Notes: generated by a model not told the origin, from the letters alone. Positions 1 through 20,484 are shown, counted from the first letter of the stretch. The stretch is DNA of 64,000 nt from Parcubacteria group bacterium (GCA_028286565.1 JAQBRH010000002.1:17876-81875); one strand, 5' to 3'. Numbers and translations are program-made.

Positions 1-2
1 CA

Positions 3-1529: not shown

Positions 1530-1543
1530 GCCTCTTACGAGGC

Positions 1544-1576
1544 GGGCTCATTCTCAGGAATGAGCCCTTTTTCTTT
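1544..1576 (+). terminator. Rho-independent terminator (GGGCTCATTC-TCAG-GAATGAGCCC then TTTTTCTTT)
   Basis: Perfect 10-bp inverted repeat followed by T-run directly after the stop of the Ig-repeat gene. Confidence 0.8.
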
Positions 1577-1632
1577 ACCCTGAGCTTGTCGAAGGGTTTA
1601 CCCTATGTCGGGCTTGAAGGTATACTTACAAA

Positions 1633-2676
1633 ATGAAAAAAGAGAAACCGGCTTCCCAAGTCCTCTACAGGAAATACCGCCCCCAGACCTTTAAGGATGT
1701 CATCGGCGAAGACCATGTGGTCAAAGTGCTTGAGAAGGCGATCTCTCTCGGCAATGTCTCGCATGCCTATCTTTTCTCCGGGTCGAGAGGTACGGGCAAG
1801 ACTTCCGTGGCGCGCATTCTCGCTCGCGAGCTCGGGACGTCGGCAAACGATTTGTATGAGATAGATGCGGCCACCCACACAGGTGTCGACGATATCCGAG
1901 AATTGAACGAAGGGGTGAGCACGCTCCCGTTCGATTCGAAATACAAGGTCTACATCATCGACGAGGTGCACATGCTTTCAAAGTCCGCCTTCAATGCGTT
2001 CTTGAAGACCCTTGAAGAGCCTCCGGCACACGTCATCTTTATCCTGGCCACGACCGAGATCGAGAAGGTCCCGGAGACCATCCGCTCAAGATGCCAGATC
2101 TTCGTCTTCAGATCTCCGAACCAATCGGTCTTAAAAGAATTCGCCGGAGTGATCGCGGGCAAAGAAGGATTCAAACTGGACGCTGATGCAGCAGAGCTCG
2201 TAGCCATCCTCGGAGACGGGTCATTTAGAGATACGCACGGGATACTCGAGAAGGTCATCTCCTCTTCGGCGGATAAAAAGATCACCCGAAGCGAAGTCGA
2301 AGCGGTCACCGGCGCTCCCCGGGCCGAACTCGTCCGAGACATCCTCGAAGCGGTCGTCCTCCAAGATCTCCATAAAGGATTATCCGCGGTGGGGAAGGCG
2401 AGCGCCGGGAATGCGGATATGAAATTATTCTCCAAGCTCATCCTCGAGCGCCTTCGTTTCCTTTTTCTCCTCCGCTTGAAAGCCGGGATGGATACGTATA
2501 TTTCCGAACAGATCTCCGAAGACGACCTTCATTTCCTTACAGACCTTGCGGCTAAAGCCGGAGCATCCCTCACTTCCGAAACTCTCATCACCTTCATCAC
2601 CGCTTCCGAATCTTCGGGCCGAACCTCGATCCCCGAACTTGCGCTTGAACTCGCTCTCGCGGATTCGATTAAATAA
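1633..2676 (+). CDS. dnaX: DNA polymerase III subunit gamma/tau (short form, 347 aa)
   Basis: AAA+ clamp-loader motifs: HAYLFSGSRGTGKTS (Walker A), YIIDEVHMLS (Walker B), AFLKTLEEPP, SRCQ sensor. Confidence 0.9.
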   Translation: MKKEKPASQVLYRKYRPQTFKDVIGEDHVVKVLEKAISLGNVSHAYLFSGSRGTGKTSVARILARELGTSANDLYEIDAATHTGVDDIRELNEGVSTLPFDSKYKVYIIDEVHMLSKSAFNAFLKTLEEPPAHVIFILATTEIEKVPETIRSRCQIFVFRSPNQSVLKEFAGVIAGKEGFKLDADAAELVAILGDGSFRDTHGILEKVISSSADKKITRSEVEAVTGAPRAELVRDILEAVVLQDLHKGLSAVGKASAGNADMKLFSKLILERLRFLFLLRLKAGMDTYISEQISEDDLHFLTDLAAKAGASLTSETLITFITASESSGRTSIPELALELALADSIK

Positions 2677-2698
2677 AAAGCTCCGGGAATCCGGAGCT
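2665..2698 (-). terminator. Hairpin AGCTCCGG-GAAT-CCGGAGCT with T-run on the minus strand; terminator for the convergent lipoprotein gene (and possibly dnaX)
   Basis: 8-bp perfect stem; minus-strand sequence after hairpin is TTTTTATTTAAT. Confidence 0.6.
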
Positions 2699-2702
2699 GT
2701 CC

Positions 2703-3923
2703 TTACGGGGCTATGAATGCTTTCTCTTTCGAAGTGTGGGGCTGATCGATGCCGATCTTCGAGGCCGAGATCGTCGGCATGTCCTCCGCCTTTGTGGAGC
2801 GCAGAGCCGAGAGGAGCGAGCCAAGCTTGTATTCGCCGTCGCCCAATATGTCCCAGTGGCCAAAGGTGTTCATGGCCGAGATGGTCATGGAGAGGCCTTC
2901 GGTCAAGGGGTCGAACAACATTGATCCTCTGTAGAGGGTCTTCACCTTGAACTGCGGCATGCTGCGCCACAGGAAGGGGATGGCGAAGTTTTCCCAATTT
3001 TTGCGGTCCCGGCTTACGAACAAGAAGAGATCGCAGTGCCCGCAGTCCGTACCTTTGGGATACGCCGCCGCGAGCATGAGGTAGCCGAACCCTTCGGCCC
3101 GGATCACATCGATGTGCCAGATCACGTAGCCGGGCTGAGCGATAGCGACCGGTCCGACGACCTTCAAAGGAGCTTCGGTCACGGACCTTCCGGGAATCGG
3201 GACCGCTTCGCGGAGGATAACATCCGTACCCGAAGCGACACAGCCTCCTCCGCCGGCCTGCACGTACCACATGCTCCAGAGCGAGCGATCCGGTTCGAGG
3301 ACGCTCGTCTGAGAGACCGCGTTGTGGTTGCGTTCCTGGAAAAGTATTCCTTTGTGGAAGATGTTCACTTCATCCGGCGTGGTCAGAGCCTTGATCGTAT
3401 TGAAGACCGGGTCAACCTCGCGCCAGGTGATGACCGTCTCGCCGAACCCCGGATCATAGATCATGTCCGGATCGGAAGAGTAGCGATTCGGTCCGGGGTG
3501 GGGGACGAGCGGGCTCTCCATGAAGCTCGGAGGGACCCAGCTCTGCGAGAGGAAACACAAGAAGGTCGGATTCTCGAAATTCGCGTTCGATCCTTTGTAC
3601 GGAGTGACGATCATCTTCTTCCCGCAGCCCCGGGGTCCGAGTATCACATCCGGGTGGACGTAGTCATCGTTCCCGAACGGATCGAGAGGCATCTTCGTGA
3701 GGTGGAGAGGGGTGGTCGTGGCCCTTCCTAGCAGTTCAAGATATGAGGCTGCCGGCGATTTGCGAACCAAGGAATCGATGGGCCAGAGGGGAGTCGGCCT
3801 TGGAAGCCGAGGCTTCAGCACGGGTGCTCCCGACCCGAACATCGAAGGGTCTCCTGGGAGGGAGAGCCTTTCCGGGGAACATCCGAGGAAGAGGACCATC
3901 AGGAAGAGGTTGTAGCGCCGCAT
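2703..3923 (-). CDS. Hypothetical lipoprotein (N-terminal MRRYNLFLMVLFLGC lipobox), 406 aa
   Basis: Long ORF, signal peptide with L-x-G-C lipobox; no recognisable catalytic family from sequence alone. Confidence 0.6.
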   Translation of the reverse strand: MRRYNLFLMVLFLGCSPERLSLPGDPSMFGSGAPVLKPRLPRPTPLWPIDSLVRKSPAASYLELLGRATTTPLHLTKMPLDPFGNDDYVHPDVILGPRGCGKKMIVTPYKGSNANFENPTFLCFLSQSWVPPSFMESPLVPHPGPNRYSSDPDMIYDPGFGETVITWREVDPVFNTIKALTTPDEVNIFHKGILFQERNHNAVSQTSVLEPDRSLWSMWYVQAGGGGCVASGTDVILREAVPIPGRSVTEAPLKVVGPVAIAQPGYVIWHIDVIRAEGFGYLMLAAAYPKGTDCGHCDLFLFVSRDRKNWENFAIPFLWRSMPQFKVKTLYRGSMLFDPLTEGLSMTISAMNTFGHWDILGDGEYKLGSLLSALRSTKAEDMPTISASKIGIDQPHTSKEKAFIAP

Positions 3924-4013
3924 AGGACCTCAAAGGTGGGTGTGATGAGCAAGTTCTCTAACTACCTTACTCTTTGGGCCTTGTATGTCAAAAGAAGTCG
4001 CCAATATAAGTAT

Positions 4014-4535
4014 CTACTCAACTATCACCTTTTTGATGTTTGAAAATTGCAGAAGATTCTTCTTGATCAAAGGCTTCATCATAGCTACTGAAAATGATGA
4101 TCCAAGCCAACCATCCATTTGTAGATCTGCATGAGCCACATCTCCTTCTAATCTCACTTTTACTAGGACGTCGGCCTGTCTTGGTGCGAACTCAGCCGCC
4201 TTTGTGGCTGCTTCAGAATACAGATCACTAATTTTATGAGTAATCTTTGTGCTTGTCGCTATCCACACGGTCTCGTTCATGATCTGATCAAGCTGCTGGT
4301 CACTCGTCATCCCTTTGGGAGGAGTGTTATTCCATACATCCAAAACTTTCTTCCTGTATACATCAAAGTCTTTGGGTAAAAAAATCGTAAGCTCATTTAT
4401 ATCTGAGCCGGTTTGCGCAGTAGAAGTTGTTTGACTTGCATTAGCGGGTACATCTTCCTTATTTCTAGTGGTGTAAACACCTACGCCGATCAAAACTATT
4501 AGTACGCAAATTATTAGAAGAATTCTTTTGTGCAT
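4014..4535 (-). CDS. Hypothetical membrane-anchored protein (single N-terminal TM); AT-rich gene
   Basis: N-terminal hydrophobic helix MHKRILLIICVLIVLIGVGVY, about 35% GC unlike neighbours. Confidence 0.55.
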   Translation of the reverse strand: MHKRILLIICVLIVLIGVGVYTTRNKEDVPANASQTTSTAQTGSDINELTIFLPKDFDVYRKKVLDVWNNTPPKGMTSDQQLDQIMNETVWIATSTKITHKISDLYSEAATKAAEFAPRQADVLVKVRLEGDVAHADLQMDGWLGSSFSVAMMKPLIKKNLLQFSNIKKVIVE

Positions 4536-4884
4536 ATTGTTGGTTGATAAAATTATAGCATCTATAATGCTGAGAGTCGTAGAAGACGTTAGAACTTGGA
4601 TACTGGAAAATTATGGCACTATGTATATACCAAATCTGCTGATTCATTAGGGGGTACCCTTACCCCCGAGAGGTGGGTACCCGGTAGGTGGAGTAATAGA
4701 TGTTAGGTTGGTTCTCAAAAAGTACCCCTTCCCCAGATTCTGCTCATCGGCAACCAATCTGAAATCTGGTATGAAATTTTTTGAATTCTTGGACTAAGGA
4801 ATGTGCACTTCCCATTTAGCTAAAAGTATGGTTATATTGAAAATAGAGTCCGGGCTAGCAATCTCACCTCTTCAGGGAAGACTA

Positions 4885-5472
4885 ATGAAAACGCCCAAGT
4901 TCCTTACATACCAGAGCCGGATCTACCTCGGCCTTATGATCGCAATTGCAGCAGCTGTGCAGATCTTCAGCCTCATGCTTGTGGGCGTGGACAACAAGGC
5001 CCTTCCTCCGATCACGCTCCACAGCCTTCACCTGGCAGGATTACTGATCTCATGCGGAGTCTTCCTGTTTCTCACATGGGCGGCCGTGTACTTCCTGTTC
5101 GTCGCAGTTCATCCAATCGACCTGATGAACGCCACCGACGACGCTGAGAAGGACGTGGTGGCTAGAAAGATCAGGGGCGGAGATACCGCTATCGTGACCT
5201 ATCACTTTCGTGAGTTGCCACTTCGGGCAAAGGTGCTCGAAGTCATGTGCTGGGTAATGGCCACGCTTTTCGGCTTCATGGGTCTCGCACTCGCTACGGG
5301 TGTCGTGGGATTTGCCTTGCGCGGTCCAGGTACCGGCAGCAAGTGGGGATACATCGGTGCGATGGTCTGCGGGGCCGTTCTCATGATTTCAATGGCTCTC
5401 GCCGGACGAACGAAGCGTGTGCATGCTTTCGAGAAGTCGCGTCTCGACCTGACTCGCGATCTCGGGATCTAG
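4885..5472 (+). CDS. Integral membrane protein (about 5 TM helices), hypothetical; ORF-finder start 4801 probably too far upstream
   Basis: MKTPKFLTYQ start preceded by AGGGAAG; multiple hydrophobic segments. Confidence 0.6.
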   Translation: MKTPKFLTYQSRIYLGLMIAIAAAVQIFSLMLVGVDNKALPPITLHSLHLAGLLISCGVFLFLTWAAVYFLFVAVHPIDLMNATDDAEKDVVARKIRGGDTAIVTYHFRELPLRAKVLEVMCWVMATLFGFMGLALATGVVGFALRGPGTGSKWGYIGAMVCGAVLMISMALAGRTKRVHAFEKSRLDLTRDLGI

Positions 5473-5473
5473 C

Positions 5474-5665
5474 ATGCGAGCCCATACGATCTACGCTCCA
5501 CCTGGAGACGAGAAGACTCTGGAGATAGCCAACTCGCTTCGTAGACAGGGATATATGGTAACTATCCAGCCCAACCCTGGACTTACCGAGCCCTTGTTCA
5601 GAGCTGAGGATGGTCCCATCAGGGGTTATGAGAAGATTCTTCAACACTTCCGTAACCAATCGTAA
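5474..5665 (+). CDS. Small hypothetical protein (63 aa), translationally coupled to upstream membrane protein
   Basis: Start 2 nt after upstream stop; GC-rich codon usage like host genes. Confidence 0.45.
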   Translation: MRAHTIYAPPGDEKTLEIANSLRRQGYMVTIQPNPGLTEPLFRAEDGPIRGYEKILQHFRNQS

Positions 5666-5689
5666 CGGCGTGCCTTCTAGGTGCGCTGT

Positions 5690-5744
5690 TTTTTTATTTA
5701 CTAATTTTGCGAGCTGGCCAGATGGTACGAAGTTGGAACCTATT
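5690..5744 (-). repeat. Copy 1 (inverted orientation) of conserved intergenic motif AGGTTCCAACTTCGTACCAtCtGGCCAGCT...
   Basis: Core ACGAAGTTGGAACCT at 5727-5741 is the reverse complement of the 15-nt core found at 14074-14088, 14675-14690 and 16077-16091; starts at the TAG stop of the 5740..6339 gene. Confidence 0.8.
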
Positions 5745-6339
5745 TGATAAATTTGAAAGTAGAAAGTATCTTATTTCCTTCTGATTCTTTTCTGTAAATA
5801 TCAACTTCATATATGTCTTCTCTGTGCTGGAAAAAAATTTGCTGAGACCATCCCTTAACAGCTTGGTCATTAGGGGACCCTCTGTATATCTCGTAAATAT
5901 ATGCTGTTTCTCCATCGATAGTATCTTTTCCAATAAATCTTCTTACAACTTTTCCACTATCATCTGTTTTAGAAATGAGATCCAAGAAATCAACAATATT
6001 TTTTGCTGATGCATAGTAACTACCCAATTCCTTTGAGCCCAGAGGATTAATTATAAAACTCATAGTTTGATTTCCGTTTTTTATCCCTATAGACAAAAGA
6101 GATTCGTCACCTGTTGCATCAACTTCTCCTTTAGAAGGGCCGACCGTCGTAATAGTCAAACTTTCTGGATAATTAAGTTTAAAATTGTGTGCAGTGTTTT
6201 TGTATATCTTCCAGTTATCAGTTTCAGTGTTACTCTCAGTTATTGAAGAAACATTTTGTATAGAGTTATTTTTTGAAACAAAATACCAACCACCCAGAAC
6301 TATAGTAATACCCACTATCAAAATTATTTTAATTTTCAT
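5740..6339 (-). CDS. Hypothetical secreted/membrane-anchored protein, AT-rich (alternative start 6378)
   Basis: MKIKIILIVGITIVLGGWYFV signal-anchor; about 33% GC. Confidence 0.55.
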   Translation of the reverse strand: MKIKIILIVGITIVLGGWYFVSKNNSIQNVSSITESNTETDNWKIYKNTAHNFKLNYPESLTITTVGPSKGEVDATGDESLLSIGIKNGNQTMSFIINPLGSKELGSYYASAKNIVDFLDLISKTDDSGKVVRRFIGKDTIDGETAYIYEIYRGSPNDQAVKGWSQQIFFQHREDIYEVDIYRKESEGNKILSTFKFIK

Positions 6340-6523
6340 AAATTTAAATATAGTACAAAAACAGTAATCTACCAACATTGCTGGCCGTCTCGAGCTGGAA
6401 CCGCGGACGGGCTTGCTTTGCTTGGCGGGTTAGTTACGTTTTGCAGTACTCCGATGATGCGTCTCGTGCGCTTCAAAAAGTGACGAAAGTTATTTAGCTC
6501 TTCTTTTTACAATGATCAGATCT

Positions 6524-6880
6524 TTATACCTCAGGCTCTTCATTAATACCCAATTTTGATTGCATTGCCTGTCTAATCCACCATGTGGCATACGTTGAGA
6601 ACTTGTAATCTTTCCCATGGTGTCCATGCTTCACATACATATCTACGGCTTTGTAGAGGCCAAGATTGCCTTCCGCGATCAAGTCCATGATTGATACATT
6701 AGGATCTGTACCCTCATATTTTTGTGCGATCCTAGCTACCAAACGAAGGTTGCCCTCCGCAAGCTTTTTCTTAGATTCATCATCTCCTTTGCGGGCAAGA
6801 GCTTTCTCCTCTTCTGCTTTAATGAGAGGAGACCTTGATATTTCCTCTAGATATTTTGTTAGTTGAGAGTTTTTTGCCAT
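6524..6880 (-). CDS. Truncated sigma-70 family fragment: regions 1.2-2.4 only (118 aa), no region 3/4; pseudogene or sigma-fragment decoy
   Basis: [42 protein letters not shown] are hallmark sigma70 region 2 motifs; ORF stops right after region 2.4 and no downstream region 3/4 ORF exists. Confidence 0.75.
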
Positions 6881-7337
6881 AATTTCTTAGTTTATTGATA
6901 TCCGGAGTTGAGAGCCAAGCAGCCATAGCCCCATATCCTTTCTTATTTATAGTAAACGGTTCAATGGGCTGTGCCTTTCTAAGAAAGATGAGTAGACAGT
7001 ACTTCTTATCTTTAAAAAGATTTGCATAGTGCGGGATATCCTTTTCCTCAATTCCGTCTTGTGTACCATACGCTTTGAGGATTTCTCGTACTTTAATTGG
7101 AGTAAGGCCCTCAAAGGTGAGTACTTTTGAGACTTCGGCGATGACGGTCACAGGCTCTCCACTATTCTTAAAATAAACGCTATCCCAGGCCTTGATCTTT
7201 CCCCACGGCGCGGAACGATTCATATACCAGCGGGATTCGATGGTCTTCTCTCCAGTGAGGACCTGGGGCAACAAACCCCAAGACTTTTTCATGATGGCCA
7301 CATGGTCGGTGTGATTGTTGTCTTTCCTTTTATTCAT
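6819..7337 (-). CDS. ASCH-domain-like protein (putative RNA-binding), 172 aa; 3' end overlaps sigma fragment by 62 nt
   Basis: [22 protein letters not shown] pattern resembles ASCH beta-barrel N-terminus; assignment tentative. Confidence 0.4.
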
Positions 7338-7635
7338 GAGGCAGCTCTTTCACTTTCCTTACAAGCTCGTCCCAACTAGATGTTTTCATTCTCTGTCCAG
7401 GCGGAAGTTCGAGATCACAAGCATGGTCCAAAATGTCACTTACAATATTTTGTCGTTCACCATTAATTGTTAAGGCCTCAAATCCTGTGCCACAGATCTT
7501 ATACGCCGCTTCTTCGGGCGTGAGATCACCAGCTTCCTTTCGAGCGATCGTATTCTCACAGTATTCTCTAAGAGCCGAGAGCTTCTTCTCAGGCGCAGCC
7601 TCATGTACTTTCTGAAATTCAGGATCTTGGGTCAT
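7330..7635 (-). CDS. Hypothetical protein (101 aa), 4-nt overlap (ATGA) with downstream gene
   Basis: ORF in AT-rich operon, coupled stop/start. Confidence 0.45.
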   Translation of the reverse strand: MTQDPEFQKVHEAAPEKKLSALREYCENTIARKEAGDLTPEEAAYKICGTGFEALTINGERQNIVSDILDHACDLELPPGQRMKTSSWDELVRKVKELPHE

Positions 7636-7678
7636 ATTGTGTAATAAGGATGGAATTACCTAGAAAATATTTCTTAAC

Positions 7679-8008
7679 TTAAGTAACAAAGGCACTAAGG
7701 AATTCTCTCAAAAAGAAAACGACGCCTATAAATATCAATGTTCCAATCAAAGACTTTTTTGAATAGTTATCTTCGTGATTTTTTCCATTGATCAGAAGAT
7801 ATGTTAGCTCATCAACAAATAATCCTAAGCCTACTGCATAAGTAACTACTGATCCGATCAGTAACCCCAAAAGAACGAGACCAACGCCGTACATATAATG
7901 ATGAGTCCAAAACTTCCCAACCGTAGGTGCAGGTATAGGTTTAAAGTACAGAAACAAGCGTGTGAAGATAATGGTACCTAGAAATATGAGGAAAAACAGA
8001 TCTGCCAT
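7679..8008 (-). CDS. Small membrane protein (3 TM), hypothetical
   Basis: Hydrophobic segments; AT-rich. Confidence 0.5.
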   Translation of the reverse strand: MADLFFLIFLGTIIFTRLFLYFKPIPAPTVGKFWTHHYMYGVGLVLLGLLIGSVVTYAVGLGLFVDELTYLLINGKNHEDNYSKKSLIGTLIFIGVVFFLREFLSAFVT

Positions 8009-8514
8009 GGGTTAAGTATATATGAATATAACCCTTCTGTTTCAGGAAAGTTTATTTACGTCTAGACACGAAAACACTGCTGAGAATAGCGAGAGTAAGA
8101 ATGATCCCAAGTGCGAACCATAAGGAAATATCTCTCGGATGCCCTATAAGATACCGAATATTAGACAGATATTGAGAAGGTTGCATCAAATCGGCTAGCC
8201 TATTGTTTCTGTATTCATGCTCAGATAGACGTTAACTCAGTATTAATCTTTCTGTACAGACGGTAAGGTCAACACAAGAAAGTTGACCGAGGGCCGTCTC
8301 TTTATCTATGCCTTGGACAGACATAATTGGAAAATAAAAGTCGTTAATGGACCCAATTGCCTCCACAGCCCTCCCGCAGGCCGTGCATTTTTATGTGGTT
8401 GTTGGTATGCATGATATCTATGACGTGAACAGCGGCCATGACTTACAAACTATTTGATATACCTCTACTTCTCCTAAAAAAGCGAGTCATCTAGACTCGT
8501 CCTTAGATGCAACA

Positions 8515-9042
8515 TCATCCTTTCTTAAGAAAAGGCACTGTGATTGAAGCAGCGAGGATAATACCAATACTATTACTTATGAGATCAAGCCACGTATCTT
8601 CGATGGTGGTCGACATTACAAAGCCGAGGTAATGCTGAAGCACAAACTCCAGGATCTCATTCCCCACCCCAAGCGCAGTCACCACAAGTGCCGTAAAAAC
8701 AAAAAATTGGAATTTATTGATTACGACTTTGCTGTCTCTGATCGCCAAGAAACAAACAACTAAAGCTAGAAACCCTCCACAAAGCCCATGCTGAATGCGA
8801 TTTGCAAGAGCTCCATCAAAGCTTTCAACAATGAGGGCACTAAAAAAATTAAGGATGAGGATAGTGACGATCGAGAGGCAAGCACGATGGAAATCTAGCT
8901 TAGGGATTCTCTGTTCAAAAAAGTATGCAACCAGGAAAAGAGAAACTAAATAAAGAATTGGGTAGGCAAAAGAAATACCAAAAAGGAGGGAGATAAGGTG
9001 GGCGGACATAACAGTAGAATACCACATACGAAGTTTGAACAA
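8515..9042 (-). CDS. Integral membrane protein (about 5 TM), hypothetical; hairpin CGAGTC-ATCTA-GACTCG plus T-run downstream on minus strand (8482-8510)
   Basis: Hydrophobicity pattern; terminator-like hairpin after stop. Confidence 0.55.
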   Translation of the reverse strand: MFKLRMWYSTVMSAHLISLLFGISFAYPILYLVSLFLVAYFFEQRIPKLDFHRACLSIVTILILNFFSALIVESFDGALANRIQHGLCGGFLALVVCFLAIRDSKVVINKFQFFVFTALVVTALGVGNEILEFVLQHYLGFVMSTTIEDTWLDLISNSIGIILAASITVPFLKKG

Positions 9043-9044
9043 TT

Positions 9045-9398
9045 TTAAAACTTTCCAGTTAATATAAAAACTAAGCTAATAAGCCCAAAAACAAACGCAA
9101 GCACGACAGTTCCTGAAATAAGATCTTTGCTGCGGCCAATTGCTTCATCGTGCCCAGGATGAAGTTTAGTAAGAGCAATTTCGATAGCCATATTTTGGAT
9201 TTCGGTAACTACAATGAAAAACCAGCAAAATATCAACAGTAGTAACTCTTGAGCTGATAGCGGCCCGAATAAGAAATATACAGCCGGTATTCCGATAATT
9301 CCAAAAACAATCATTTCGAAACGAACAGCGAAGTCCTGAGTGAAAGCATATTTCAAGCCTCGAAAGGGATGAGAAAGTCTATTAATCCAATACTTCAT
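9045..9398 (-). CDS. dgkA: Diacylglycerol kinase / undecaprenol kinase family (DgkA-like) membrane protein
   Basis: 3 TM helices and conserved EIQNMAIEIALTKLHPGHDEAIGRSKDLISGTVVLA resembling prokaryotic DAGK signature. Confidence 0.65.
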   Translation of the reverse strand: MKYWINRLSHPFRGLKYAFTQDFAVRFEMIVFGIIGIPAVYFLFGPLSAQELLLLIFCWFFIVVTEIQNMAIEIALTKLHPGHDEAIGRSKDLISGTVVLAFVFGLISLVFILTGKF

Positions 9399-9406
9399 GA
9401 CATATT

Positions 9407-9961
9407 TTAATTATGTGCTTTCTTTTTCTTAAACATCTTCTTATACTCGCTTCGGCTCATCAGACTTTTGGTATCAGTGAGTCTGTCTAAGAATACCTTG
9501 CCGTCAATATGGTCGAGCTCGTGGAGGATCACTTTGGCAAGCAAACCTTTAGCTTCCATAGTGAACCATTCTCCATTTTTGTCTCGCGCTTTAATGACAA
9601 GTGAAGTAGGTCTCGACACTTTGCCAAAGAGATTTGCATGGGCTACGCTGCCGCATCCTTCGTATTCTGAGAAGGTTTTCTTAGAGACTGAGAGTACCTG
9701 AGGATTTATGAATACACGCAGATCATCTGCCTCTTTATCTTTGTCGATTGTTCTCAGGGAAGTCATCCTTATTTCTGTAAGAAAAATCCTTTGGTTAATA
9801 CCAATTTGAGGAGCTGCGATCCCTACCAAATTTCCATGTCTCATTGAATCAACCAGATCTTTAATGGTCTTTTTAATTTTCTTTGATTTAAAATCCTTCA
9901 CCACAGAAGACTTCCTACGGATGATCGGATTGCCTACTTGGGTTAATTCTTTGATTATCAT
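9407..9961 (-). CDS. def: Peptide deformylase
   Basis: Motifs GIAAPQIGINQRIF, EGCGS, HELDHIDG (HExxH) diagnostic of PDF. Confidence 0.9.
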   Translation of the reverse strand: MIIKELTQVGNPIIRRKSSVVKDFKSKKIKKTIKDLVDSMRHGNLVGIAAPQIGINQRIFLTEIRMTSLRTIDKDKEADDLRVFINPQVLSVSKKTFSEYEGCGSVAHANLFGKVSRPTSLVIKARDKNGEWFTMEAKGLLAKVILHELDHIDGKVFLDRLTDTKSLMSRSEYKKMFKKKKAHN

Positions 9962-9969
9962 TTATTGTT

Positions 9970-10404
9970 TTAAATAAGATGTCTATCTGACTTCCAGACT
10001 ACACCTGAGCCAAAATCTGGAGCTCGAAATAAAGCCTTCTGATCATCCTCACTCATTTTCTGTGCGTACCCGCGTACAAGCTCTAGCTCCTTTGGGTCAG
10101 TAACCTTCCTGAAGCCCGGAGAATCATAGCCAGATCCCGGATCAGATTCCCATTTCAACAATCCCTCACTGTCGTTACCAAAGAGTCTTCCGGACTGTTC
10201 TCTAGACATCCACAGATACGTCTCATACCACCCGTCTATGATAGGTCCCTGAATTAATCTGACACTTTCTTTGTCTAGCCCTGTTTTATAATCTGCTACA
10301 CTCCAAGACCATCCTATTTGTGCTTGAATATCAAATTTAGCAAGGAAAAGTACTACTAAAGCTAATGCAAGCAGGAGCAAATAAAGTGAGTGAGTCTTTT
10401 TCAT
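9970..10404 (-). CDS. Hypothetical secreted protein (signal peptide), 144 aa
   Basis: N-terminal MKKTHSLYLLLLALALVVLFLA signal; AT-rich. Confidence 0.5.
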   Translation of the reverse strand: MKKTHSLYLLLLALALVVLFLAKFDIQAQIGWSWSVADYKTGLDKESVRLIQGPIIDGWYETYLWMSREQSGRLFGNDSEGLLKWESDPGSGYDSPGFRKVTDPKELELVRGYAQKMSEDDQKALFRAPDFGSGVVWKSDRHLI

Positions 10405-11060
10405 TTCTTTAAATATTCAAACATCTTCTCTAAAGCAATCTTTCTCATAGAAGTATTGTGTTTTTCATCATCATTCATCTCTGCCCAGGTCTTTTCATGT
10501 CCCTTGGGAATGAAAATGGGATCCCAGCCGAAACCCATTTCTCCTTTTGGAGCATTGGCAATTATTCCCTCCATAGATCCACTAAAGATGCGTACTCCCG
10601 ATTCATCACAAATAGCGAATTGAACTTCAGCTAAAGCGTCTCTGGTATCTAAACCGTCCACCAATCTACAGAGTCCCTCGTTATCAAGTGTTTCCAAAAA
10701 CCATTTAATAAGAGGACCAGGAAGAGATTTCATTCCCTTAAAAACAAGCGATACATCTTCTACTAATACTGGAGACTTTACGATTTCATATGCTCTTTTA
10801 GCCTTATCTTTAACAACTTCTTCCAAGTCTAAAGACTGGATTTCCTTAAGATCTAGTTTGGTGTGAGCAACAGGTAGATGAAAATAGTCTCCAAGATATT
10901 TGGCTTTTCCTTCATTACCCGTGATGAAAGTAAGATTACTCATAGCCTTCATCTTATCCTGATAGTCGTACTTAGCAAGCAGGTCAAATATCACTGCCAA
11001 TTCAGCAATAAACTCTTCGTGTGACTGCTCTAGGTCTTGATCTGTCACTGCTTTACTCAC
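10401..11060 (-). CDS. rdgB: Non-canonical purine NTP pyrophosphatase (Ham1/RdgB family) with N-terminal extension
   Basis: FITGNEGKAKYL N-terminal motif and C-terminal EMGFGWDPIFIPKGHEKTWAEM...HNTSMRKIA match ITPase family signatures. Confidence 0.7.
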   Translation of the reverse strand: MSKAVTDQDLEQSHEEFIAELAVIFDLLAKYDYQDKMKAMSNLTFITGNEGKAKYLGDYFHLPVAHTKLDLKEIQSLDLEEVVKDKAKRAYEIVKSPVLVEDVSLVFKGMKSLPGPLIKWFLETLDNEGLCRLVDGLDTRDALAEVQFAICDESGVRIFSGSMEGIIANAPKGEMGFGWDPIFIPKGHEKTWAEMNDDEKHNTSMRKIALEKMFEYLKK

Positions 11061-11104
11061 TTAGAAAAGTATTACATTGACGCGTCTTGAGCGTAGCACT
11101 TGTT

Positions 11105-11123
11105 TGCTGGGGAGCAGGGAATC
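11105..11123. repeat. 19-bp exact direct repeat of the 3' end of tRNA-Gln (tgctggggagcagggaatc); putative att scar
   Basis: Identical to 13576-13594 (tRNA-Gln T-stem 3' half plus acceptor 3' strand). Confidence 0.85.
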
Positions 11124-11860
11124 TCGACTACCGTCGCGAGTGGTTTTCGATCTCGACATACTCGATAACGAAAACCCTTTCGATTCCCTGACGCAAGCAA
11201 AGCAGTTTGCTTACTCTCTCCCAGCAGTAAAGCAAAACGAGCAGCCCGTGCCGCTCGTTTGTGCTAATAACTGCTGGGATTCGTGCGGGATGTTCGAACC
11301 CTTGTGGCTTCTTGTGATGAGGATTTCGAGAAACGACTCGAGAATATCAGGCGGATCAATGAGGCGACGACGGGAAGGGCTTTGGCTGCCTAGAACGTCT
11401 CGAACGTCCTAACGTCCGGAAATGCAAGGTTCACTGTGCTATTCCTCGAGCTCTACTGCCTCACATTCGGTTTAAACGTTGCGCTACTTCCAGGCATTAC
11501 TATCGACCTACTAGCGGTTACTGGTAGAGGGGTCTGGGGAAGCGCATCTGCTGGTGGAACCAGTGAAGCTGATCTTGTTTGGGTGGAAAGGGATATAGGA
11601 GGAGTGTCTTCACCCTCAGCCGTAAAACGTCGTCGATGTCGTGAAGTCCTATGCGCTGAAATGACCGGACGACCAGAAGTATGGTCGCTGTAGGTAGCCT
11701 CTATTAATATGGTAGCCCCACCAAAGGCTGAGCTCGTTCGCTCGTTGCTTAGAAACACGAGCGCGGCATGCTTTTGGCAAGGGTACGCTAGTGGCTAGTA
11801 CCTGGGTAGCCAAGGAGCTCCCCTGAGGAGCGAGATGCTTGCGCATAGCGCAAGGAGGAA
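11124..11860 (+). other. 0.74-kb segment without any credible ORF, rich in hairpins; candidate structured ncRNA, long leader, or decayed gene inside the putative integrated element
   Basis: All six frames fragmented by stops; hairpins CGCTCG-N13-CGAGCG (11737-11761), TTGCGC-ATA-GCGCAA (11836-11850); ends in AAGGAGG RBS of the next small gene. Confidence 0.35.
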
Positions 11861-11863
11861 TGT

Positions 11864-12037
11864 ATGGGCAAGAAGGACAAGTTCGAGGGACACAAGGACG
11901 AGAGCTTCAACCGTGCGCATGGCCGCCGGGACAACGAGCCGTCCAAGACAAAGCAGGACGACACCAAGCGCGAACGGAATGTCGCCGCAAAGGGTAGTGA
12001 AGAGCACAGCCGCGTAGCCAAAGGCAAGCGCGGTTAG
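11864..12037 (+). CDS. Small highly charged/basic protein (57 aa), below ORF-track cutoff
   Basis: Perfect SD AAGGAGG 5 nt upstream of ATG; followed by hairpin plus TTTTTCTTT terminator at 12063-12098. Confidence 0.6.
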   Translation: MGKKDKFEGHKDESFNRAHGRRDNEPSKTKQDDTKRERNVAAKGSEEHSRVAKGKRG

Positions 12038-12062
12038 TAAGCTCCTCTGAGCTCAGTTCGTT

Positions 12063-12098
12063 GACGGCCGGCGTGATTTCGCTGGCCGTTTTTCTTTA
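12063..12098 (+). terminator. Rho-independent terminator after small basic protein gene
   Basis: GGCCGGCG-tgatttc-GCTGGCCG imperfect stem followed by TTTTTCTTT. Confidence 0.55.
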
Positions 12099-12119
12099 TG
12101 ATGATGATACAATTTTATC

Positions 12120-12716
12120 ATGTCACACGAGGCGAACATCGCACGACGCGCATCCTGGCTCGGTAAGCACGGCACGGTCACCCTGATCGAAGATGAGACC
12201 ATTCAGGGGTACCAACATGCCCTTTCGCTCGAAGATGTCGCGGCAAGCTTGAAGCTCCTTCCGGAAGACGATCTAAGAGGCCTCGCCGCTGTCATCCTCC
12301 ACCAGCCTTCGCGAAAGGAAGACGCCGCCCACCCCCGCTGGGCGGCATATTTCTCCGACTATAGTCGGAATGATATCGTCGGTCCAACAATCCTGCTCGA
12401 GGCAGTTCGGCCGGAAGTTCCGAATCGTTGGCCGGTATCTCTTGGGCCCGAAGATGTCCGGGAGCTGAAACTACTTGTAGACGAAGGGCATGTCATCGAT
12501 CGGCAAGAACGGGTTGTCCTGATTTCGAATGACATTCACGCAGTGCGGAATACGCAGCTTCGTTCCTTGGTTCACGAGCTGGGGCATCATGTCGACTATA
12601 TGAGCAACCCAGCTTCGTACGCCTCGAAGGGAAAGAATCACAAAGAGTCTTTCGCGATTCGCTACGCGCGTCACCACGCTGACGTGCTCGACGGGCTGCG
12701 CTTCGCAAGGTCCTAA
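12120..12716 (+). CDS. Hypothetical protein with HExxH zinc-metallopeptidase-like motif (LVHELGHHVDY), SprT/ImmA-like possibility
   Basis: HELGH motif plus downstream His residues; no further family assignment possible. Confidence 0.45.
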   Translation: MSHEANIARRASWLGKHGTVTLIEDETIQGYQHALSLEDVAASLKLLPEDDLRGLAAVILHQPSRKEDAAHPRWAAYFSDYSRNDIVGPTILLEAVRPEVPNRWPVSLGPEDVRELKLLVDEGHVIDRQERVVLISNDIHAVRNTQLRSLVHELGHHVDYMSNPASYASKGKNHKESFAIRYARHHADVLDGLRFARS

Positions 12717-13095
12717 CATCCGCAGAGTAGGAGAAGGATTCGACTCTCTTCCGATGCCACGCGACCGTGCTGCGTACCGGCGAGCAATTCGCTCTGCAAG
12801 ACGTCGTGCTCGGTGACGCAATATCGCTCGAGCGGTTGACTCCCCGATGGCGGCACGAGCAAGATCCAGTTCATTCCTACCTGGATCTTCGAAAGGAGGT
12901 ATACCACTTCAGACGAGGATGAGCACTGAGTCTTTCCACTTTCAAAAAGCTGTGGATATCTGGTGAGCAAGAACACGTACAATAGAGATGTGGATCAATA
13001 ACTCTCATGTTGGAGGGTGTCGCTATTGTATTTGCCAAAGTTGTAAATATGTGTCCTAATGTGGCTGGCCCTATGGGACTATGTTGGAACTTTTG

Positions 13096-13527
13096 TTAAT
13101 CAAGAGGGTACAAAACATACCAAGGGTTCCCCGGTAGCCTTTTCCTAATACCAGCCTCAATGTTTCTGTCCGGCAAGTTGTGCCAAGGATCCACCCATCC
13201 ATCTTTTACTCTTAATAAATAGTGGCCGACGGGATACTTTTCGTTTTTAGCTATCAGAGTTATAGAACCTATAATTTTAGAATATTTACCTCCTTCCTTT
13301 TTATTAAACTCATATTTTTTATTTTGGTTAAAAAACTTACTTTTATAATTTATGTTTTTAGTTTTTAGATAATTTACAATATCAAATATTTTTACACCTC
13401 TTTCAATTGTATAAAACTTACTTTCAAAATCTTTCTTTACAGTGTCGTATGGTTTATCTAGAAAATTTGCGAGACAAGCAATTCCGCAACCGTTGAGATC
13501 TTTTTGATGTTGCCATTTTTTAGTCAT
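13096..13527 (-). CDS. Peptidase C39-like (papain-fold cysteine peptidase, C39_2-type) standalone domain; 30% GC, abuts tRNA-Gln
   Basis: Q-x5-NGCGIACLANFL catalytic Cys motif and C-terminal VGHYLL...DPWHN His region resemble C39 bacteriocin-processing peptidase domain. Confidence 0.5.
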   Translation of the reverse strand: MTKKWQHQKDLNGCGIACLANFLDKPYDTVKKDFESKFYTIERGVKIFDIVNYLKTKNINYKSKFFNQNKKYEFNKKEGGKYSKIIGSITLIAKNEKYPVGHYLLRVKDGWVDPWHNLPDRNIEAGIRKRLPGNPWYVLYPLD

Positions 13528-13575
13528 ACACCGATCCTACATTTTAATAATATATATGCAAGAGACTACCTTACG

Positions 13576-13648
13576 TGCTGGGGAGCAGGGAATCGAACCC
13601 CAATTAAAGGCTTCAAAGGCCTCTGTCCTACCGTTAGACGACTCCCCA
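13576..13648 (-). tRNA. tRNA-Gln (anticodon UUG)
   Basis: Minus-strand sequence TGGGGAG-TC-GTCT-AACGGTA-GGAC-A-GAGGC-CTTTGAA-GCCTT-TAAT-TGGGG-TTCGATT-CCCTG-CTCCCCA-G folds as cloverleaf with TTCGATT T-loop; acceptor UGGGG.../...CCCCA-G matches canonical bacterial tRNA-Gln. Confidence 0.85.
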
Positions 13649-14070: not shown

Positions 14071-14120
14071 AAATAGGTTCCAACTTCGTAATAATAGGTT
14101 AGCAGACAAATTTGATAATG
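14071..14120 (+). repeat. Copy 2 of conserved intergenic motif (ATAGGTTCCAACTTCGTA...), immediately after hairpin plus T-run
   Basis: 15-nt core identical to the other copies; 3' half diverged. Confidence 0.8.
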
Positions 14121-14671: not shown

Positions 14672-14720
14672 ATAGGGTTCCAACTTCGTACCACAGGGCC
14701 AGCTAGCGAATTTTGAAAAG
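14672..14720 (+). repeat. Copy 3 of conserved intergenic motif (ATAGGGTTCCAACTTCGTACCACAGGGCCAGCTAGCGAATTTTG)
   Basis: Core plus extended ACCAC.GGGCCAGC match to copies 1 and 4. Confidence 0.8.
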
Positions 14721-14758
14721 AAAAACTCCTCAACAAATTAATGTTGAGGAGATGTGAC

Positions 14759-16000: not shown

Positions 16001-16074
16001 TGGATCTCTCCGGGTGAGGGGTGACTGGCTAGGTAATACCACAAAAATGATAGAAGAGCTAGAAGCAGAAGGTT

Positions 16075-16118
16075 CCAACTTCGTCTCACGGGGCCAGTAA
16101 AATTTTGTGCTCATAATT
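16075..16118 (+). repeat. Copy 4 of conserved intergenic motif (AGGTTCCAACTTCGTCTCACGGGGCCAGTAAAATTTTG)
   Basis: 15-nt core identical; lies between divergent aminopeptidase and VOC genes. Confidence 0.8.
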
Positions 16119-16171: not shown

Positions 16172-16564
16172 ATGAACAGACCAGTACACTTTGAGATCCA
16201 GGCAGACAACATCGAGCGGGCAAAAACATTCTATGAGAAGGTCCTCGGCTGGAAGATCGAACAGATGATGAAGAAAGAAGAGGGAGGAATGGATTATTGG
16301 GGACTCGACACTGGGGACAGCACTCCGGGCATCAACGGAGGCCTCTATGCTCGAGCAGAAGGGACAGACAAGCTCTACACGTACGACTGCACCATCGCTG
16401 TTGAAGACGTGGACAAGGCCGTTGAGGCCGTAAAGGCGAACGGCGGCACCGTCCTCCGCGAGAAGTCCGAGATCCCGGGCGTCGGCTTTTTTGCGCGCTG
16501 CAAGGATACTGAAGGCAACCTGTTCGGATTGATGCAGCCGACGGGCTGGGATGGGAGCAAATAA
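16172..16564 (+). CDS. Glyoxalase/bleomycin-resistance (VOC) family protein
   Basis: VHFEIQADNIERAKTFYEKVLGW N-terminal and GNLFGLMQ C-terminal typical of VOC fold; terminator TGCACC-AAAGG-GGTGCA-TTTTTT at 16587-16612. Confidence 0.7.
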   Translation: MNRPVHFEIQADNIERAKTFYEKVLGWKIEQMMKKEEGGMDYWGLDTGDSTPGINGGLYARAEGTDKLYTYDCTIAVEDVDKAVEAVKANGGTVLREKSEIPGVGFFARCKDTEGNLFGLMQPTGWDGSK

Positions 16565-19914: not shown

Positions 19915-20484
19915 ATGCAGGAACACACAGACAAAATTCAAAAGATCACCGGTTTCTACAAGAGGCACAAGCGCATGCCCGGCTACCAGGAGATCATGAA
20001 CTTGGTCGGCTTCAAGTCGAAGAACGCGGTCTTTAAGCTGATCAATCGATTGGTCGAAGAGGGGATCGTGAGGAAAGATTCACAAGGCAGGCTCACGCCG
20101 GCCCGAGCCTTTGATGAAGTGCCTCTCCTCGGACTCGTCGAAGCGGGGTTCCCAACGGTTGCCGAGGAAGGTACGGACACGCTTTCGCTTGACGACTATC
20201 TGATCGAGCACAAAGAATCTACGTATCTCCTCGAAGTGAAAGGGGATTCGATGATCGACGAGGGGATCAAAGAAGGCGACCTCGTCATCGCCGAGCGAAA
20301 AGGCGAAGCCAAGGACGGGGACATTGTCATCGCCGAGATCGACGGCGGCTGGACCATGAAATATTTTCGTAAGCGCGGCGGCAAAGTCTACCTCGAAGCC
20401 GCAAACCCGCGTTTCAAACCCATGTATCCAAAATATGATTTCAAGATCGCTGCTATTGTGAAGGGGGTGATCAGGAAGTATTAG
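19915..20484 (+). CDS. lexA: LexA repressor (S24 self-cleaving peptidase)
   Basis: N-terminal wHTH, C-terminal VKGDSMIDEGIKEGD (Ser nucleophile) and GGWTMKYF (Lys) motifs. Confidence 0.85.
   Translation: MQEHTDKIQKITGFYKRHKRMPGYQEIMNLVGFKSKNAVFKLINRLVEEGIVRKDSQGRLTPARAFDEVPLLGLVEAGFPTVAEEGTDTLSLDDYLIEHKESTYLLEVKGDSMIDEGIKEGDLVIAERKGEAKDGDIVIAEIDGGWTMKYFRKRGGKVYLEAANPRFKPMYPKYDFKIAAIVKGVIRKY

Follow-up and report, generated by a model that had tools for sequence, protein, structure and literature searches.

The closest described counterparts of the locus analysed here are tRNA-linked genomic islands, integrated at tRNA 3' ends and detected by methods of the IslandViewer type, among them islands reported from Patescibacteria (PMC12455944). 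In 63 Patescibacteria MAGs, 120 genomic islands have been described; most of the transfers took place inside the phylum, few were recent, and translation genes were over-represented among them (PMC12455944). The region at ~2.7–13.6 kb of the window (the whole 64,000-nucleotide stretch of Parcubacteria DNA that was analysed) shares with these islands its position beside a tRNA gene, deviations in GC and oligonucleotide composition, accessory and surface-protein genes, and a content that varies between relatives; at 2.5–11 kb, it is also placed within their size range of 2.7–45 kb (PMC12455944). A direct repeat matching the 3' end of its tRNA gene is a partial parallel, as it bounds only a 2.45-kb sub-segment. 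The region differs from these islands in that it carries no integrase or mobility gene, it forms an alternating patchwork of AT-rich and GC-rich pieces, it includes housekeeping-type genes (def, DagK and ITPase) that may be sole copies, and the tRNA gene and island are inverted relative to most relatives.

Two other kinds of system offer partial parallels. As in hypervariable regions at hot spots, conserved genes (dnaX, tRNA-Gln and glyoxalase) flank content that turns over, and the same hot spot serves several Parcubacteria lineages, although the case here is built on single contigs of distant relatives. As in integron-like cassette arrays, a short conserved site follows some ORF stops and adjacent pieces differ in GC; however, the motif found here occurs on both strands and also in divergent promoter regions. 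An integron cassette array was rejected, there being no IntI integrase and the 28-nt motif not being an imperfect palindrome of the attC type. The ~2.7–13.6 kb interval is probably a composite tRNA-linked island, built from DNA that Patescibacteria exchange with one another.

Base composition of the locus

Sliding-window GC and segment counts identify three low-GC blocks where the first-pass annotation had placed them, at 3950–4800 (block 1, 40.4% GC), 5690–11060 (block 2, 39.6%) and 13090–13560 (block 3, 31.4%). The sequence around them has 57.7% GC at 1–3949, 54.0% at 4801–5689, 53.5% at 11061–13089 and 52.9% at 13561–64000; the window as a whole is ~53% GC, and ~58% is reached only within its first 4 kb. 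The annotation had described the mosaic as ~35% GC blocks in ~60% GC sequence. Its spot counts are exact (0.35 at 6001–6060 and 0.60 at 2041–2100), but as block averages these figures overstate a contrast that is really ~40% in ~53%.

The GC contrast far exceeds chance: 300-nt windows stay below 45% GC for up to 52 consecutive steps, whereas no run in 200 block shuffles exceeded 30. GC3 is 0.25–0.47 in the 12 block genes versus 0.45–0.76 (median 0.635) in 58 background ORFs (Mann-Whitney p=3.3e-8), and the offset is present at all codon positions, with GC1/GC2/GC3 of 46.7/33.3/36.5 in the block versus 56.1/40.7/66.7 in the host. After normalisation for GC, tetranucleotide usage at 5690–11080 correlates with that of the host at r=0.14, whereas random host segments of the same size give 0.59±0.10, with a minimum of 0.36. 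Both the composition and the oligonucleotide signature of the blocks are foreign to the host, as in tRNA-linked islands. The genome core, at ~53% GC, is unusually GC-rich for a clade in which relatives have 36–47%.

Gene content and boundaries

On its left, the variable interval is anchored by a conserved dnaX/holB-like clamp-loader gene (1633–2676, plus strand; Pfam DNA_pol3_delta2 and AAA) with a host-like GC3 of 0.65 and identities of 78%, 82% and 70% to its counterparts in relatives L197, L198 and L003. The next gene (2703–3923, minus strand) is GC-rich (GC3 0.76) and encodes a conserved hypothetical protein of 406 aa without a match in the Pfam search. It belongs to the semi-conserved stretch from dnaX to tRNA-Gln: a 422-aa gene of L197, 70% identical in protein and 73% in nucleotide sequence, likewise separates dnaX from tRNA-Gln and has the same relative orientation. 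After a GC step at ~3930–3990, block 1 (3950–4800, minus strand) consists of a gene for a 173-aa membrane-anchored protein (4014–4535; GC3 0.40) and 265 nt of AT-rich non-coding DNA. The protein has a single weak SpoIIIAH-like match, and its exact sequence was not found on record in other assemblies. A GC-rich insert follows (4801–5689, plus strand; GC 54%, GC3 0.64), with a terminator-like hairpin (5664–5690) at its end and a 223-aa ORFan whose sole database match is itself (locus tag JWN89_29). The tetranucleotide signature of this insert is not host-like (r=0.06–0.14).

Block 2 (5690–11080) is the main AT-rich block, and all ten genes called in it (Pfam and Logan gene calls) lie on the minus strand, in accord with the "almost all" of the first-pass annotation. 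In order of coordinate, they encode a PsbP_2-like secreted protein (5740–6378), a sigma70 fragment of 118 aa (6524–6880; Pfam Sigma70 r1.2+r2), a 172-aa protein (6819–7337), a 101-aa protein (7330–7635), a 109-aa membrane protein (7679–8008), a DUF2238 protein (8515–9042; Pfam), a prokaryotic DagK (9045–9398; Pfam), Def (9407–9961; Pfam), a 144-aa secreted protein (9970–10404) and a Ham1 ITPase (10401–11060; Pfam Ham1). A minus-strand terminator at 8499–8483 divides them into two transcription units. Pfam confirms the def, dgkA-like kinase, Ham1 and truncated sigma70 genes named earlier. The 172-aa protein, which had been called ASCH-like, is only faintly so (PF04266, E=0.17), and its AlphaFold model is unusable (pLDDT 34).

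The edges of block 2 also lie where they had been drawn, at a motif copy on the left and at a repeat of the tRNA-Gln 3' end on the right. The left copy of the 28-nt motif, AGGTTCCAACTTCGTACCAnnnGGCCAGC (5713–5741, minus strand), starts at the stop codon of the 5740–6378 gene and belongs to a 50-nt inverted pair with 14676–14725 (82% complementary). A second minus-strand copy (13065–13090), with 0 mismatches to the degenerate pattern, lies at the left edge of block 3, 5 nt past the stop codon of the 13096–13527 gene, and the motif thereby marks two block edges. Three intergenic plus-strand copies (14077–14102, 14677–14702 and 16072–16097) surround a 137-aa gene and an M29 aminopeptidase gene. 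Conservation is confined to a 28-nt core that is not palindromic and does not extend into the flanks; five copies occur in 5.7–16.1 kb and none in the other 48 kb, with 0.04 expected by chance.

The integration anchor is tRNA-Gln(UUG) (13577–13648, minus strand; ARAGORN and Rfam). A 19-nt direct repeat of its 3' end, TGCTGGGGAGCAGGGAATC (11105–11123, plus strand), is identical to 13576–13594, where shuffles give 0 expected matches, and is separated from the right edge of block 2 by 25 nt. Between them the two copies enclose just 2.45 kb and leave the main 5.4-kb block outside, with no such repeat at its far end; near 5690, 4800 and 3950 nothing derived from the tRNA was found except a 10-mer at 3961, which may be a coincidence. 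The copy at 11105–11123 looks like an att remnant. It is contained in a 141-nt element (11095–11235) with a fold of -55.9 kcal/mol (z=-5.7), and an inverted 12-mer of the tRNA-Gln T-arm is present at 11179–11190. The GC-rich part of the repeat-bounded segment (11124–13089, plus strand; GC 53.5%) has Logan gene calls for a basic protein of 57 aa (11864–12037) and a 198-aa protein (12120–12716), the latter 48.5% identical to the product of a 195-aa gene in an AT-rich block of relative L009. About 740 nt of this part is without a convincing gene; Rfam has no match in 11124–13089, and 11236–11863 has no significant structure.

Block 3 (13090–13560, minus strand; GC3 0.28) encodes a 143-aa protein (13096–13527) with weak Peptidase_C39 and phrog_4049 matches, and abuts the tRNA-Gln 3' end, ending 16 nt from it (13577). 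The variable interval runs from there toward dnaX, and the 10.9 kb between the two holds all three blocks. On the other side, a glyoxalase-family gene (16172–16564, plus strand; Pfam Glyoxalase) is the conserved right anchor, with homologues that adjoin tRNA-Gln in L011 and L016.

The mosaic is contiguous at two of its junctions. Logan contigs, which probably derive from the run behind the MAG and represent an independent assembly rather than independent data, match 4909–11080 and 11183–13606 at 100% identity. One of them comprises the whole of block 2 with 780 nt of its GC-rich left flank, and another, L002, links block 3 to the GC-rich 11183–13089; the junctions at 5690 and 13090 are both crossed.

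The locus in related Parcubacteria

In nine relatives (L003, L010, L011, L012, L013, L016, L018, L196 and L197), tRNA-Gln follows dnaX, lying 20 nt to 3.9 kb downstream. With respect to dnaX, the tRNA-Gln of the window has the reverse of the orientation seen in most relatives. Over 95 nt it shares 94% identity with that of L197, which is on the opposite strand relative to dnaX, and the match stops precisely at the tRNA 3' end. The 2.5 kb 3' of tRNA-Gln fall in the lowest 0–2% of GC for the locus in L003, L010, L018 and L196, and in the lowest 9% in L016, while L012 and L013 have low-GC stretches on the side of tRNA-Gln facing away from dnaX. All nine keep dnaX and tRNA-Gln with different genes beside the tRNA, including a restriction-modification system, NUDIX, MGMT, APH and PnuC; in L003, these are def, NUDIX and a methyltransferase. 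The dnaX/tRNA-Gln locus is a hot spot for low-GC variable DNA, as seen in single contigs of distant relatives (dnaX 51–82% identical) rather than in a strain-level pangenome.

A search over 5.8 billion proteins identified no near-identical donor; the best def match is 78% identical, with a nucleotide identity of ~70%. Identity of def to the relatives is 69–76%, versus 45–84% for core genes. Its GC3 shift is likewise close to that of the core, at +0.22 versus a core mean of ~+0.26 in the comparison with L005 and +0.10 versus +0.11 with L003. The lead of GC3 over GC1, obtained with the Muto-Osawa regression coefficients, is 8.5 versus 11.0, 2.1 versus 3.6 and 6.7 versus 6.4 for island versus host in three genomes. 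The def identity, def GC3 shift and GC3-over-GC1 lead favour vertical descent or a long stay in the genome over import.

In every relative examined, def occupies a low-GC patch of variable position, and the def of this clade is always lower in GC than its surroundings, by 0.04 to 0.14; at 35 unrelated def loci, used as a control, the difference is -0.008±0.025. The mosaic recurs independently in L009 (JGI metagenome 3300077554), in which a def 76–78% identical, a sigma-like gene and the homologue of the 198-aa protein are found in a 36–43% GC block adjoining a 51–53% GC rpoD. L009 also carries the same 28-nt motif.

Proposed origin of the island

The composite island probably arose as follows. 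DNA exchanged among Patescibacteria, from an AT-rich flexible gene pool, would have accumulated beside the tRNA-Gln 3' end and retained a lower GC and an oligonucleotide usage unlike that of the host. The 2.45 kb flanked by the 19-nt repeats, at the least, probably entered by site-specific integration into the tRNA-Gln 3' end. A later inversion, for which inverted copies of the 28-nt motif are the probable sites, would have turned tRNA-Gln and the island around, placing between dnaX and tRNA-Gln an island formerly beyond the tRNA. The first-pass annotation had proposed, as one of two options, a large recent acquisition from a low-GC donor that brought a second copy of housekeeping genes. The part about the donor is supported, in that composition and the variable tRNA site fit lateral acquisition from lower-GC Patescibacteria. 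A single acquisition is not supported, since AT-rich and GC-rich pieces, three or more of each, alternate in the interval and an att-like repeat lies inside it. Nor is a recent date supported, given a best def match of 78% and a def GC3 that tracks core genes.

It is also conceivable, if unlikely, that the region is native, vertically inherited without lateral transfer, and carries a persistent compositional offset (intragenomic heterogeneity), the alternative that the first-pass annotation had itself set against its proposal. Def and its neighbours would then have stood beside tRNA-Gln since before these lineages split, ~20 GC3 points below the core, as accessory or low-recombination DNA that escapes a core GC drive such as GC-biased gene conversion or selection. 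The core-like identity and GC3 shift of def and the small differences in GC3-over-GC1 lead agree with this account, as do the failure to find a close donor, the placement of def downstream of tRNA-Gln in the same orientation in the window and L003, and the order of def and the sigma-like gene, which L009 shares inside an AT-rich block. However, gene content at the locus, def excepted, differs in every relative, and def occupies other loci in L005, L009, L090 and L091; in L005, a def and IMPase pair lies between a helicase gene and DoxX, which are neighbours in the window. Def GC3 regressed on host GC3 has a slope of just 0.40 (n=7), the tetranucleotide signature is far from that of the host, and the repeated tRNA 3' end points to one or more integration events. 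Furthermore, accessory status alone does not impose AT-richness, because GC-rich ORFans share the interval.

An improbable source of the island is a prophage, integrative element or integrated plasmid, now decayed, that would have lost its integrase and structural genes and left def, a sigma factor and a nucleotide-pool sanitiser as auxiliary cargo. Phages carry def and sigma factors, and the region is tRNA-adjacent, has the 3'-end direct repeat and is AT-richer than the host; the sigma gene, which matches phrog_351, is truncated and rearranged in a manner that fits decay, and the 143-aa protein matches phrog_4049. These two families, one of sigma factors and one of unknown function, are nevertheless the only PHROGs matches, and no prophage structural, packaging or lysis gene was found. 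No gene for an integrase, structural proteins, replication or conjugation lies in 2.7–16.2 kb, scans of ORFs from the region and the window with Pfam, NCBIfam and PHROGs gave no integrase, transposase or recombinase, and neither region nor 64-kb window has phage or plasmid genes. Viral, phage and plasmid collections yielded no relatives of the region and no DNA similarity to it. Viral contigs lack close relatives of Def, Ham1 and the 143-aa protein, their sigma-70 matches are generic only (31–43%), and all def homologues are chromosomal genes of Patescibacteria.

Finally, a chimeric join, raised in the first-pass annotation, in which an assembler stitched in AT-rich blocks from a co-occurring low-GC Parcubacterium, is very improbable, because a separate Logan assembly spans two junctions and the L009 mosaic comes from another metagenome. 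Related Parcubacteria of ~40% GC do exist, with genes of the kind found in the blocks, and one Logan contig stops at 11080, exactly at the right compositional step, the next beginning 102 nt on. Yet Logan's different assembler runs through the steps at 5690 and 13090, and therefore the reads themselves connect AT-rich to GC-rich DNA. A chimera would also need six alternating switches, each returning to the same host locus, which is syntenic with relatives on both flanks (dnaX and the 406-aa gene; tRNA-Gln and glyoxalase), and there is no junction repeat of at least 21 nt to mislead a de Bruijn assembler (motif copies share at most 18 nt exactly, and the tRNA repeat has 19). Several independent assemblies of relatives also have low-GC DNA at this locus, with L005 to L008 drawn from four sources.

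The composite tRNA-linked island is thus a known, ordinary kind of genomic island, because related Parcubacteria keep AT-rich variable DNA at the same tRNA-Gln site. The second copy of housekeeping genes suggested in the first-pass annotation is not supported: the 64-kb window has no second def, and this def may be the only copy in the genome because relatives likewise hold theirs in low-GC variable patches. The def, DagK and Ham1 genes are intact and of Parcubacteria type, and are probably the working copies of this genome.

Base composition of the mosaic

The first-pass annotation described AT-rich blocks of roughly 35% GC embedded in sequence of roughly 60% GC, and the three low-GC blocks are real by both a 300-nt sliding profile and segment counts over the window. 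Blocks 1 (3950-4800, 40.4% GC), 2 (5690-11060, 39.6%) and 3 (13090-13560, 31.4%) are separated by segments of 54.0% (4801-5689) and 53.5% (11061-13089) and enclosed by DNA of 57.7% (1-3949) and 52.9% (13561-64000). The two spot counts behind the original figures, 0.35 and 0.60, are exact, but the contrast holds at those two spots; as block averages it is ~40% in ~53%. The transitions are sharp, 40-80 nt wide, and match gene boundaries. GC3 is 0.25-0.47 in 12 of 12 block ORFs versus 0.45-0.76 (median 0.635) in the 58 ORFs outside 3950-13600 (Mann-Whitney p = 3.3e-8), and GC1 and GC2 are lower too (46.7 and 33.3 in the blocks versus 56.1 and 40.7 in the host). When tetranucleotide signatures are normalised for GC, 5690-11080 and the remaining window correlate at r = 0.14, whereas size-matched random host segments give 0.59 ± 0.10 (minimum 0.36). 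The two GC-rich pieces within the interval, at 4801-5689 and at 11081-13089, do not resemble the host by this measure either (r = 0.06-0.14).

The host core has ~53% GC (GC3 ~0.64-0.67) and all relatives recovered, including L003, L005, L196, L197, L198 and L170, have 36-47%; the host is therefore an outlier in its clade, which makes AT-rich accessory DNA conspicuous here. Host GC3 exceeds GC1 by ~11 points of implied genome GC, a lead that suggests that GC is still rising in the host lineage. A Big_2 surface-protein gene upstream of dnaX (30-1529 in the window, 7500-9999 in L196 and 7500-9925 in L197) lies 8-15 GC points above its genome, an offset that is conserved and gene-specific in the window and these two relatives and opposite in direction to that of def.

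The dnaX and tRNA-Gln locus

A search of genome contigs with dnaX found a closest relative of at most 57%, yet exposed the synteny of dnaX and tRNA-Gln. Nine Parcubacteria relatives have tRNA-Gln(UUG) downstream of dnaX/holB, usually at 20-140 nt and at most 3.9 kb, with a glyoxalase gene close by in two of the nine. The same anchors occur in the window as dnaX (1633-2676), tRNA-Gln (13577-13648) and the glyoxalase gene (16172-16564); here, 10.9 kb separates dnaX from tRNA-Gln, the tRNA is directed back at dnaX, and the interval contains all three AT-rich blocks. A conserved hypothetical gene of 406 aa (2703-3923, minus strand) just after dnaX occupies the same position in L197 and is 70% identical. 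In the relatives, low-GC DNA also adjoins the side of tRNA-Gln that faces away from dnaX, with a different set of genes in each genome. At the tRNA 3' side, the adjacent 2.5 kb rank in the lowest 0-2% GC of the locus in four relatives (L003, L010, L018, L196) and in the lowest 9% in a fifth, L016; GC is likewise low in L012 and L013, slightly further out or on the flipped side. The genes found there include a restriction-modification pair, NUDIX, MGMT, an aminoglycoside-phosphotransferase-like gene and PnuC, and in L003 NUDIX, a methyltransferase, def and DUF3850. The dnaX and tRNA-Gln locus is a conserved hot spot for AT-rich accessory DNA across the Parcubacteria.

Gene content

Pfam bears out the earlier assignment of def, a dgkA-like kinase, Ham1 and a truncated sigma70 to the minus strand of block 2. 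The matches are def (9407-9961), a prokaryotic diacylglycerol/undecaprenol kinase (9045-9398), the Ham1 ITPase (10401-11060), DUF2238 (8515-9042) and a 118-aa sigma-70 fragment limited to regions 1.2 and 2 (6524-6880). A minus-strand terminator (8499-8483) divides the Ham1-to-DUF2238 unit from the remaining block 2 genes, and the other genes of the block encode small membrane or secreted proteins. The label "ASCH-like" for a 172-aa protein (6819-7337, minus strand) reduces to a sub-threshold match (E = 0.17); its single-sequence AlphaFold model is unusable (pLDDT 34), and it has no PDB sequence match. The sigma-like gene appears to have been split and rearranged relative to its counterpart in L009, a contig from another metagenome (5837-6502, 221 aa): the N-terminal half of the latter corresponds to the 118-aa fragment and the C-terminal half to a 101-aa ORF (7330-7635, minus strand), which in the window is placed upstream, with the 172-aa gene separating both pieces. 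In L011, a 310-aa sigma gene lies between dnaX and tRNA-Gln.

No integrase, transposase, phage or plasmid functions were found in the region or in the rest of the window, and comparison of def, Ham1, the 143-aa protein of block 3 (13096-13527), the sigma fragment, the 28-nt motif described below and the whole block with viral, phage and plasmid collections returned generic sigma-70 matches only. A 223-aa protein between two blocks is an ORFan, since the homology search returned itself alone. The ~630 nt of GC-rich DNA at 11236-11863 are without a convincing gene, a significant fold (z = -0.6 and -1.9) or an Rfam match, and may be decayed coding sequence. At a relaxed threshold, Rfam matches in 3.8-16.3 kb are the tRNA and one chance snoRNA match only.

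The GC-rich part of the window is ordinary Parcubacteria core (frr, rseP, proS, mreBC, pbp2, greA, lysS, mraZ, mraW, ftsI, a Mur ligase gene and folD), and the core-gene stretch is collinear with L005 at 45-84% protein identity. Further along, large surface/Ig-domain proteins without a Pfam match (48.9-58 kb) precede a 907-aa VirD4/TraD-like coupling protein (58952-61675) of normal host composition.

tRNA-derived repeats and a 28-nt motif

Both repeats previously placed at the edges of the main block are present. On the right, 25 nt past the edge of block 2, positions 11105-11123 match the last 19 nt of tRNA-Gln exactly (TGCTGGGGAGCAGGGAATC) and form a direct repeat with 13576-13594. The two repeats bracket 2.45 kb, consisting of GC-rich 11124-13089 and block 3, an arrangement of the kind typically left when an element integrates site-specifically at the 3' end of a tRNA gene. 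Before such an insertion, the Ham1-to-def operon would have followed the tRNA at a distance of ~45 nt, with both facing the same way, comparable to the def patch that follows tRNA-Gln in L003. The internal copy is included in a 141-nt element (11095-11235) that also has an inverted 12-mer of the tRNA T-arm, folds at -55.9 kcal/mol (z = -5.7) and has no Rfam match. The gap between two separately assembled Logan contigs (11081-11182) falls inside this element.

On the left, the edge of block 2 carries a copy of the 28-nt motif AGGTTCCAACTTCGTACCAnnnGGCCAGC (5713-5741, minus strand) directly after a stop codon, and the left edge of block 3 carries another (13065-13090, minus strand), also directly after a stop codon. 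Three further copies, all on the plus strand, are intergenic (14077-14102, 14677-14702 and 16072-16097). All five copies thus lie in 5.7-16.1 kb (10.4 kb); elsewhere in the window, over 48 kb, there are none, and 0.04 would be expected by chance. Among 2.4 Mb of related loci outside the window the motif occurs in L009 alone, at 2328-2356 on the plus strand and 127 nt upstream of def. Because the sequence around the copies is not conserved, the motif looks like a protein-binding or recombination site. Other identities were rejected: a DNA uptake sequence because the copies form a cluster instead of being spread over the genome, a dif/Xer site or SOS box because the half-sites are unconserved, and an ECF-type promoter because the flanks are unconserved. 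A LexA-like repressor gene (19915-20484; Peptidase_S24 and a weak LexA DNA-binding domain) is located 4 kb from the motif cluster.

The motif copies at 5713-5741 (minus) and 14675-14703 (plus) form a 50-nt inverted pair. Reversing an inversion between them would give the order dnaX(+), 406-aa gene(-), tRNA-Gln(+), island, glyoxalase gene(+), which is the layout of most relatives, and the block genes would then lie on the window's majority gene strand. From this arrangement we infer that an inversion between motif copies turned tRNA-Gln and the island around.

Age and source of the AT-rich DNA

The largest block had been read as either a large recent acquisition from a low-GC donor, with a second copy of housekeeping genes, or a chimeric join. 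A foreign signature at a turnover hot spot agrees with acquisition; a single event, a recent date and second copies are unsupported, the date given a closest def of 78% and a GC3 shift parallel to that of the core. First, the 708 def homologues found are all from Patescibacteria, and the closest are only 78-69% identical (~70% in nucleotide terms), which gives no sign of a recent donor. Second, def identity parallels that of the core, at 69% for L005 (core genes 45-84%) and 76% for L003 (dnaX 70%), and the def GC3 shift matches the core shift (+0.22 versus +0.16 to +0.37 against L005; +0.10 versus +0.11 against L003). Third, def GC is below its surroundings in every clade member examined: relatives show differences of -0.04 to -0.11 and the window one of -0.14, versus -0.008 ± 0.025 in 35 unrelated loci; this control reuses a def-alignment metagenome scan that caught generic def motifs, mostly at distant loci. 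Across seven genomes, def GC3 follows host GC3 with a slope of 0.40. Codon positions were compared using the Muto-Osawa regression coefficients that Lawrence and Ochman reportedly gave in 1997, and with these values the GC3 lead over GC1 is similar in island and host genes of three genomes (8.5 versus 11.0, 2.1 versus 3.6 and 6.7 versus 6.4).

The position of def differs from genome to genome. In L005, a helicase gene and DoxX, neighbours in the window, are separated by an AT-rich islet of two genes, def and one for inositol monophosphatase. Over 9188-10540 and 14905-16152 of L005, which take in this pair and proS, GC3 is 0.20-0.22 for the pair and 0.29 for proS, versus ~0.42 for neighbours; proS is among the less conserved core genes shared by L005 and the window (57%). 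Gene-by-gene replacement may be common in the clade.

The block thus combines a foreign signature and a turnover hot spot, yet has probably been long resident or long circulating among close relatives, and repeated lateral exchange is the reading that we favour with reasonable confidence. The main rival, vertical inheritance of a compartment that keeps lower GC, seems rather improbable. Somewhat more doubtful still is a def-bearing island family that would have co-diverged with its Parcubacteria hosts since before the split of the window, L009 and L003 (~22-24% def protein divergence), keeping a deficit of ~20 GC3 points and shifting parallel to each host, with the 28-nt motif as the site of cassette exchange and of inversion of the tRNA-Gln segment. 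If this were true, possibly the sole copy of an essential translation gene would reside permanently in flexible AT-rich DNA.

A chimeric join by the assembler, the other explanation raised in the first-pass annotation, is unlikely. Two Logan contigs, which another assembler built from run SRR13312974, are 100% identical to the window, one over 4909-11080 and one over 11183-13606. They cross the steps at 5690 and 13090 uninterrupted, so that the reads themselves physically link AT-rich to GC-rich DNA. A chimera would also require six alternating switches, each back to one syntenic locus, and no repeat of at least 21 nt exists at any junction. A like mosaic is seen in the 9.5-kb L009. Its low-GC block (36-43% GC) contains def at 76-78% identity, a sigma-like gene at 55% and, at 48%, a homologue of the protein of 198 aa encoded at 12120-12716, and adjoins GtrA, rpoD and one more gene at 51-53% GC. 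Logan coverage leaves out 102 nt (11081-11182) and the steps at 3950 and 4800, and one contig ends exactly at the right-hand step of block 2. The remaining contig ends are at an unremarkable place (4909) or within the tRNA, which indicates that this assembly often breaks at random or at repeats. No other assembly has the exact product of 11077-11412 or of 4014-4535 on record.

Relation to known genomic islands

The region quite likely works as a tRNA-linked genomic island or flexible-genome hot spot, a known kind of feature. It shares with such islands a position at a tRNA 3' end, deviant composition and content that varies between relatives. A tRNA-derived direct repeat is present in part, bounding 2.45 kb; unlike such islands, the region has no integrase that could be found. 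In Patescibacteria, 120 genomic islands of 2.7-45 kb have been described in 63 MAGs; the transfers are mainly intra-phylum and mainly not recent, at a mean divergence of 23.7%, and translation genes are enriched among them (PMC12455944). Since islands are already common in this phylum, the region adds to a known kind; its more unusual points are the dnaX/tRNA-Gln hot spot, the systematic occurrence of def within flexible DNA that is AT-rich, and a 28-nt motif that is specific to the lineage and marks block edges.

The sharp GC mosaic of this Patescibacteria MAG contig is most likely biological rather than a binning or assembly error, which is of use for quality control and annotation. If def, DagK and ITPase are sole copies, housekeeping functions of these reduced genomes would be carried in laterally exchanged AT-rich DNA, in agreement with the published enrichment of transferred translation genes, and composition-based contamination filters would be risky for the phylum.
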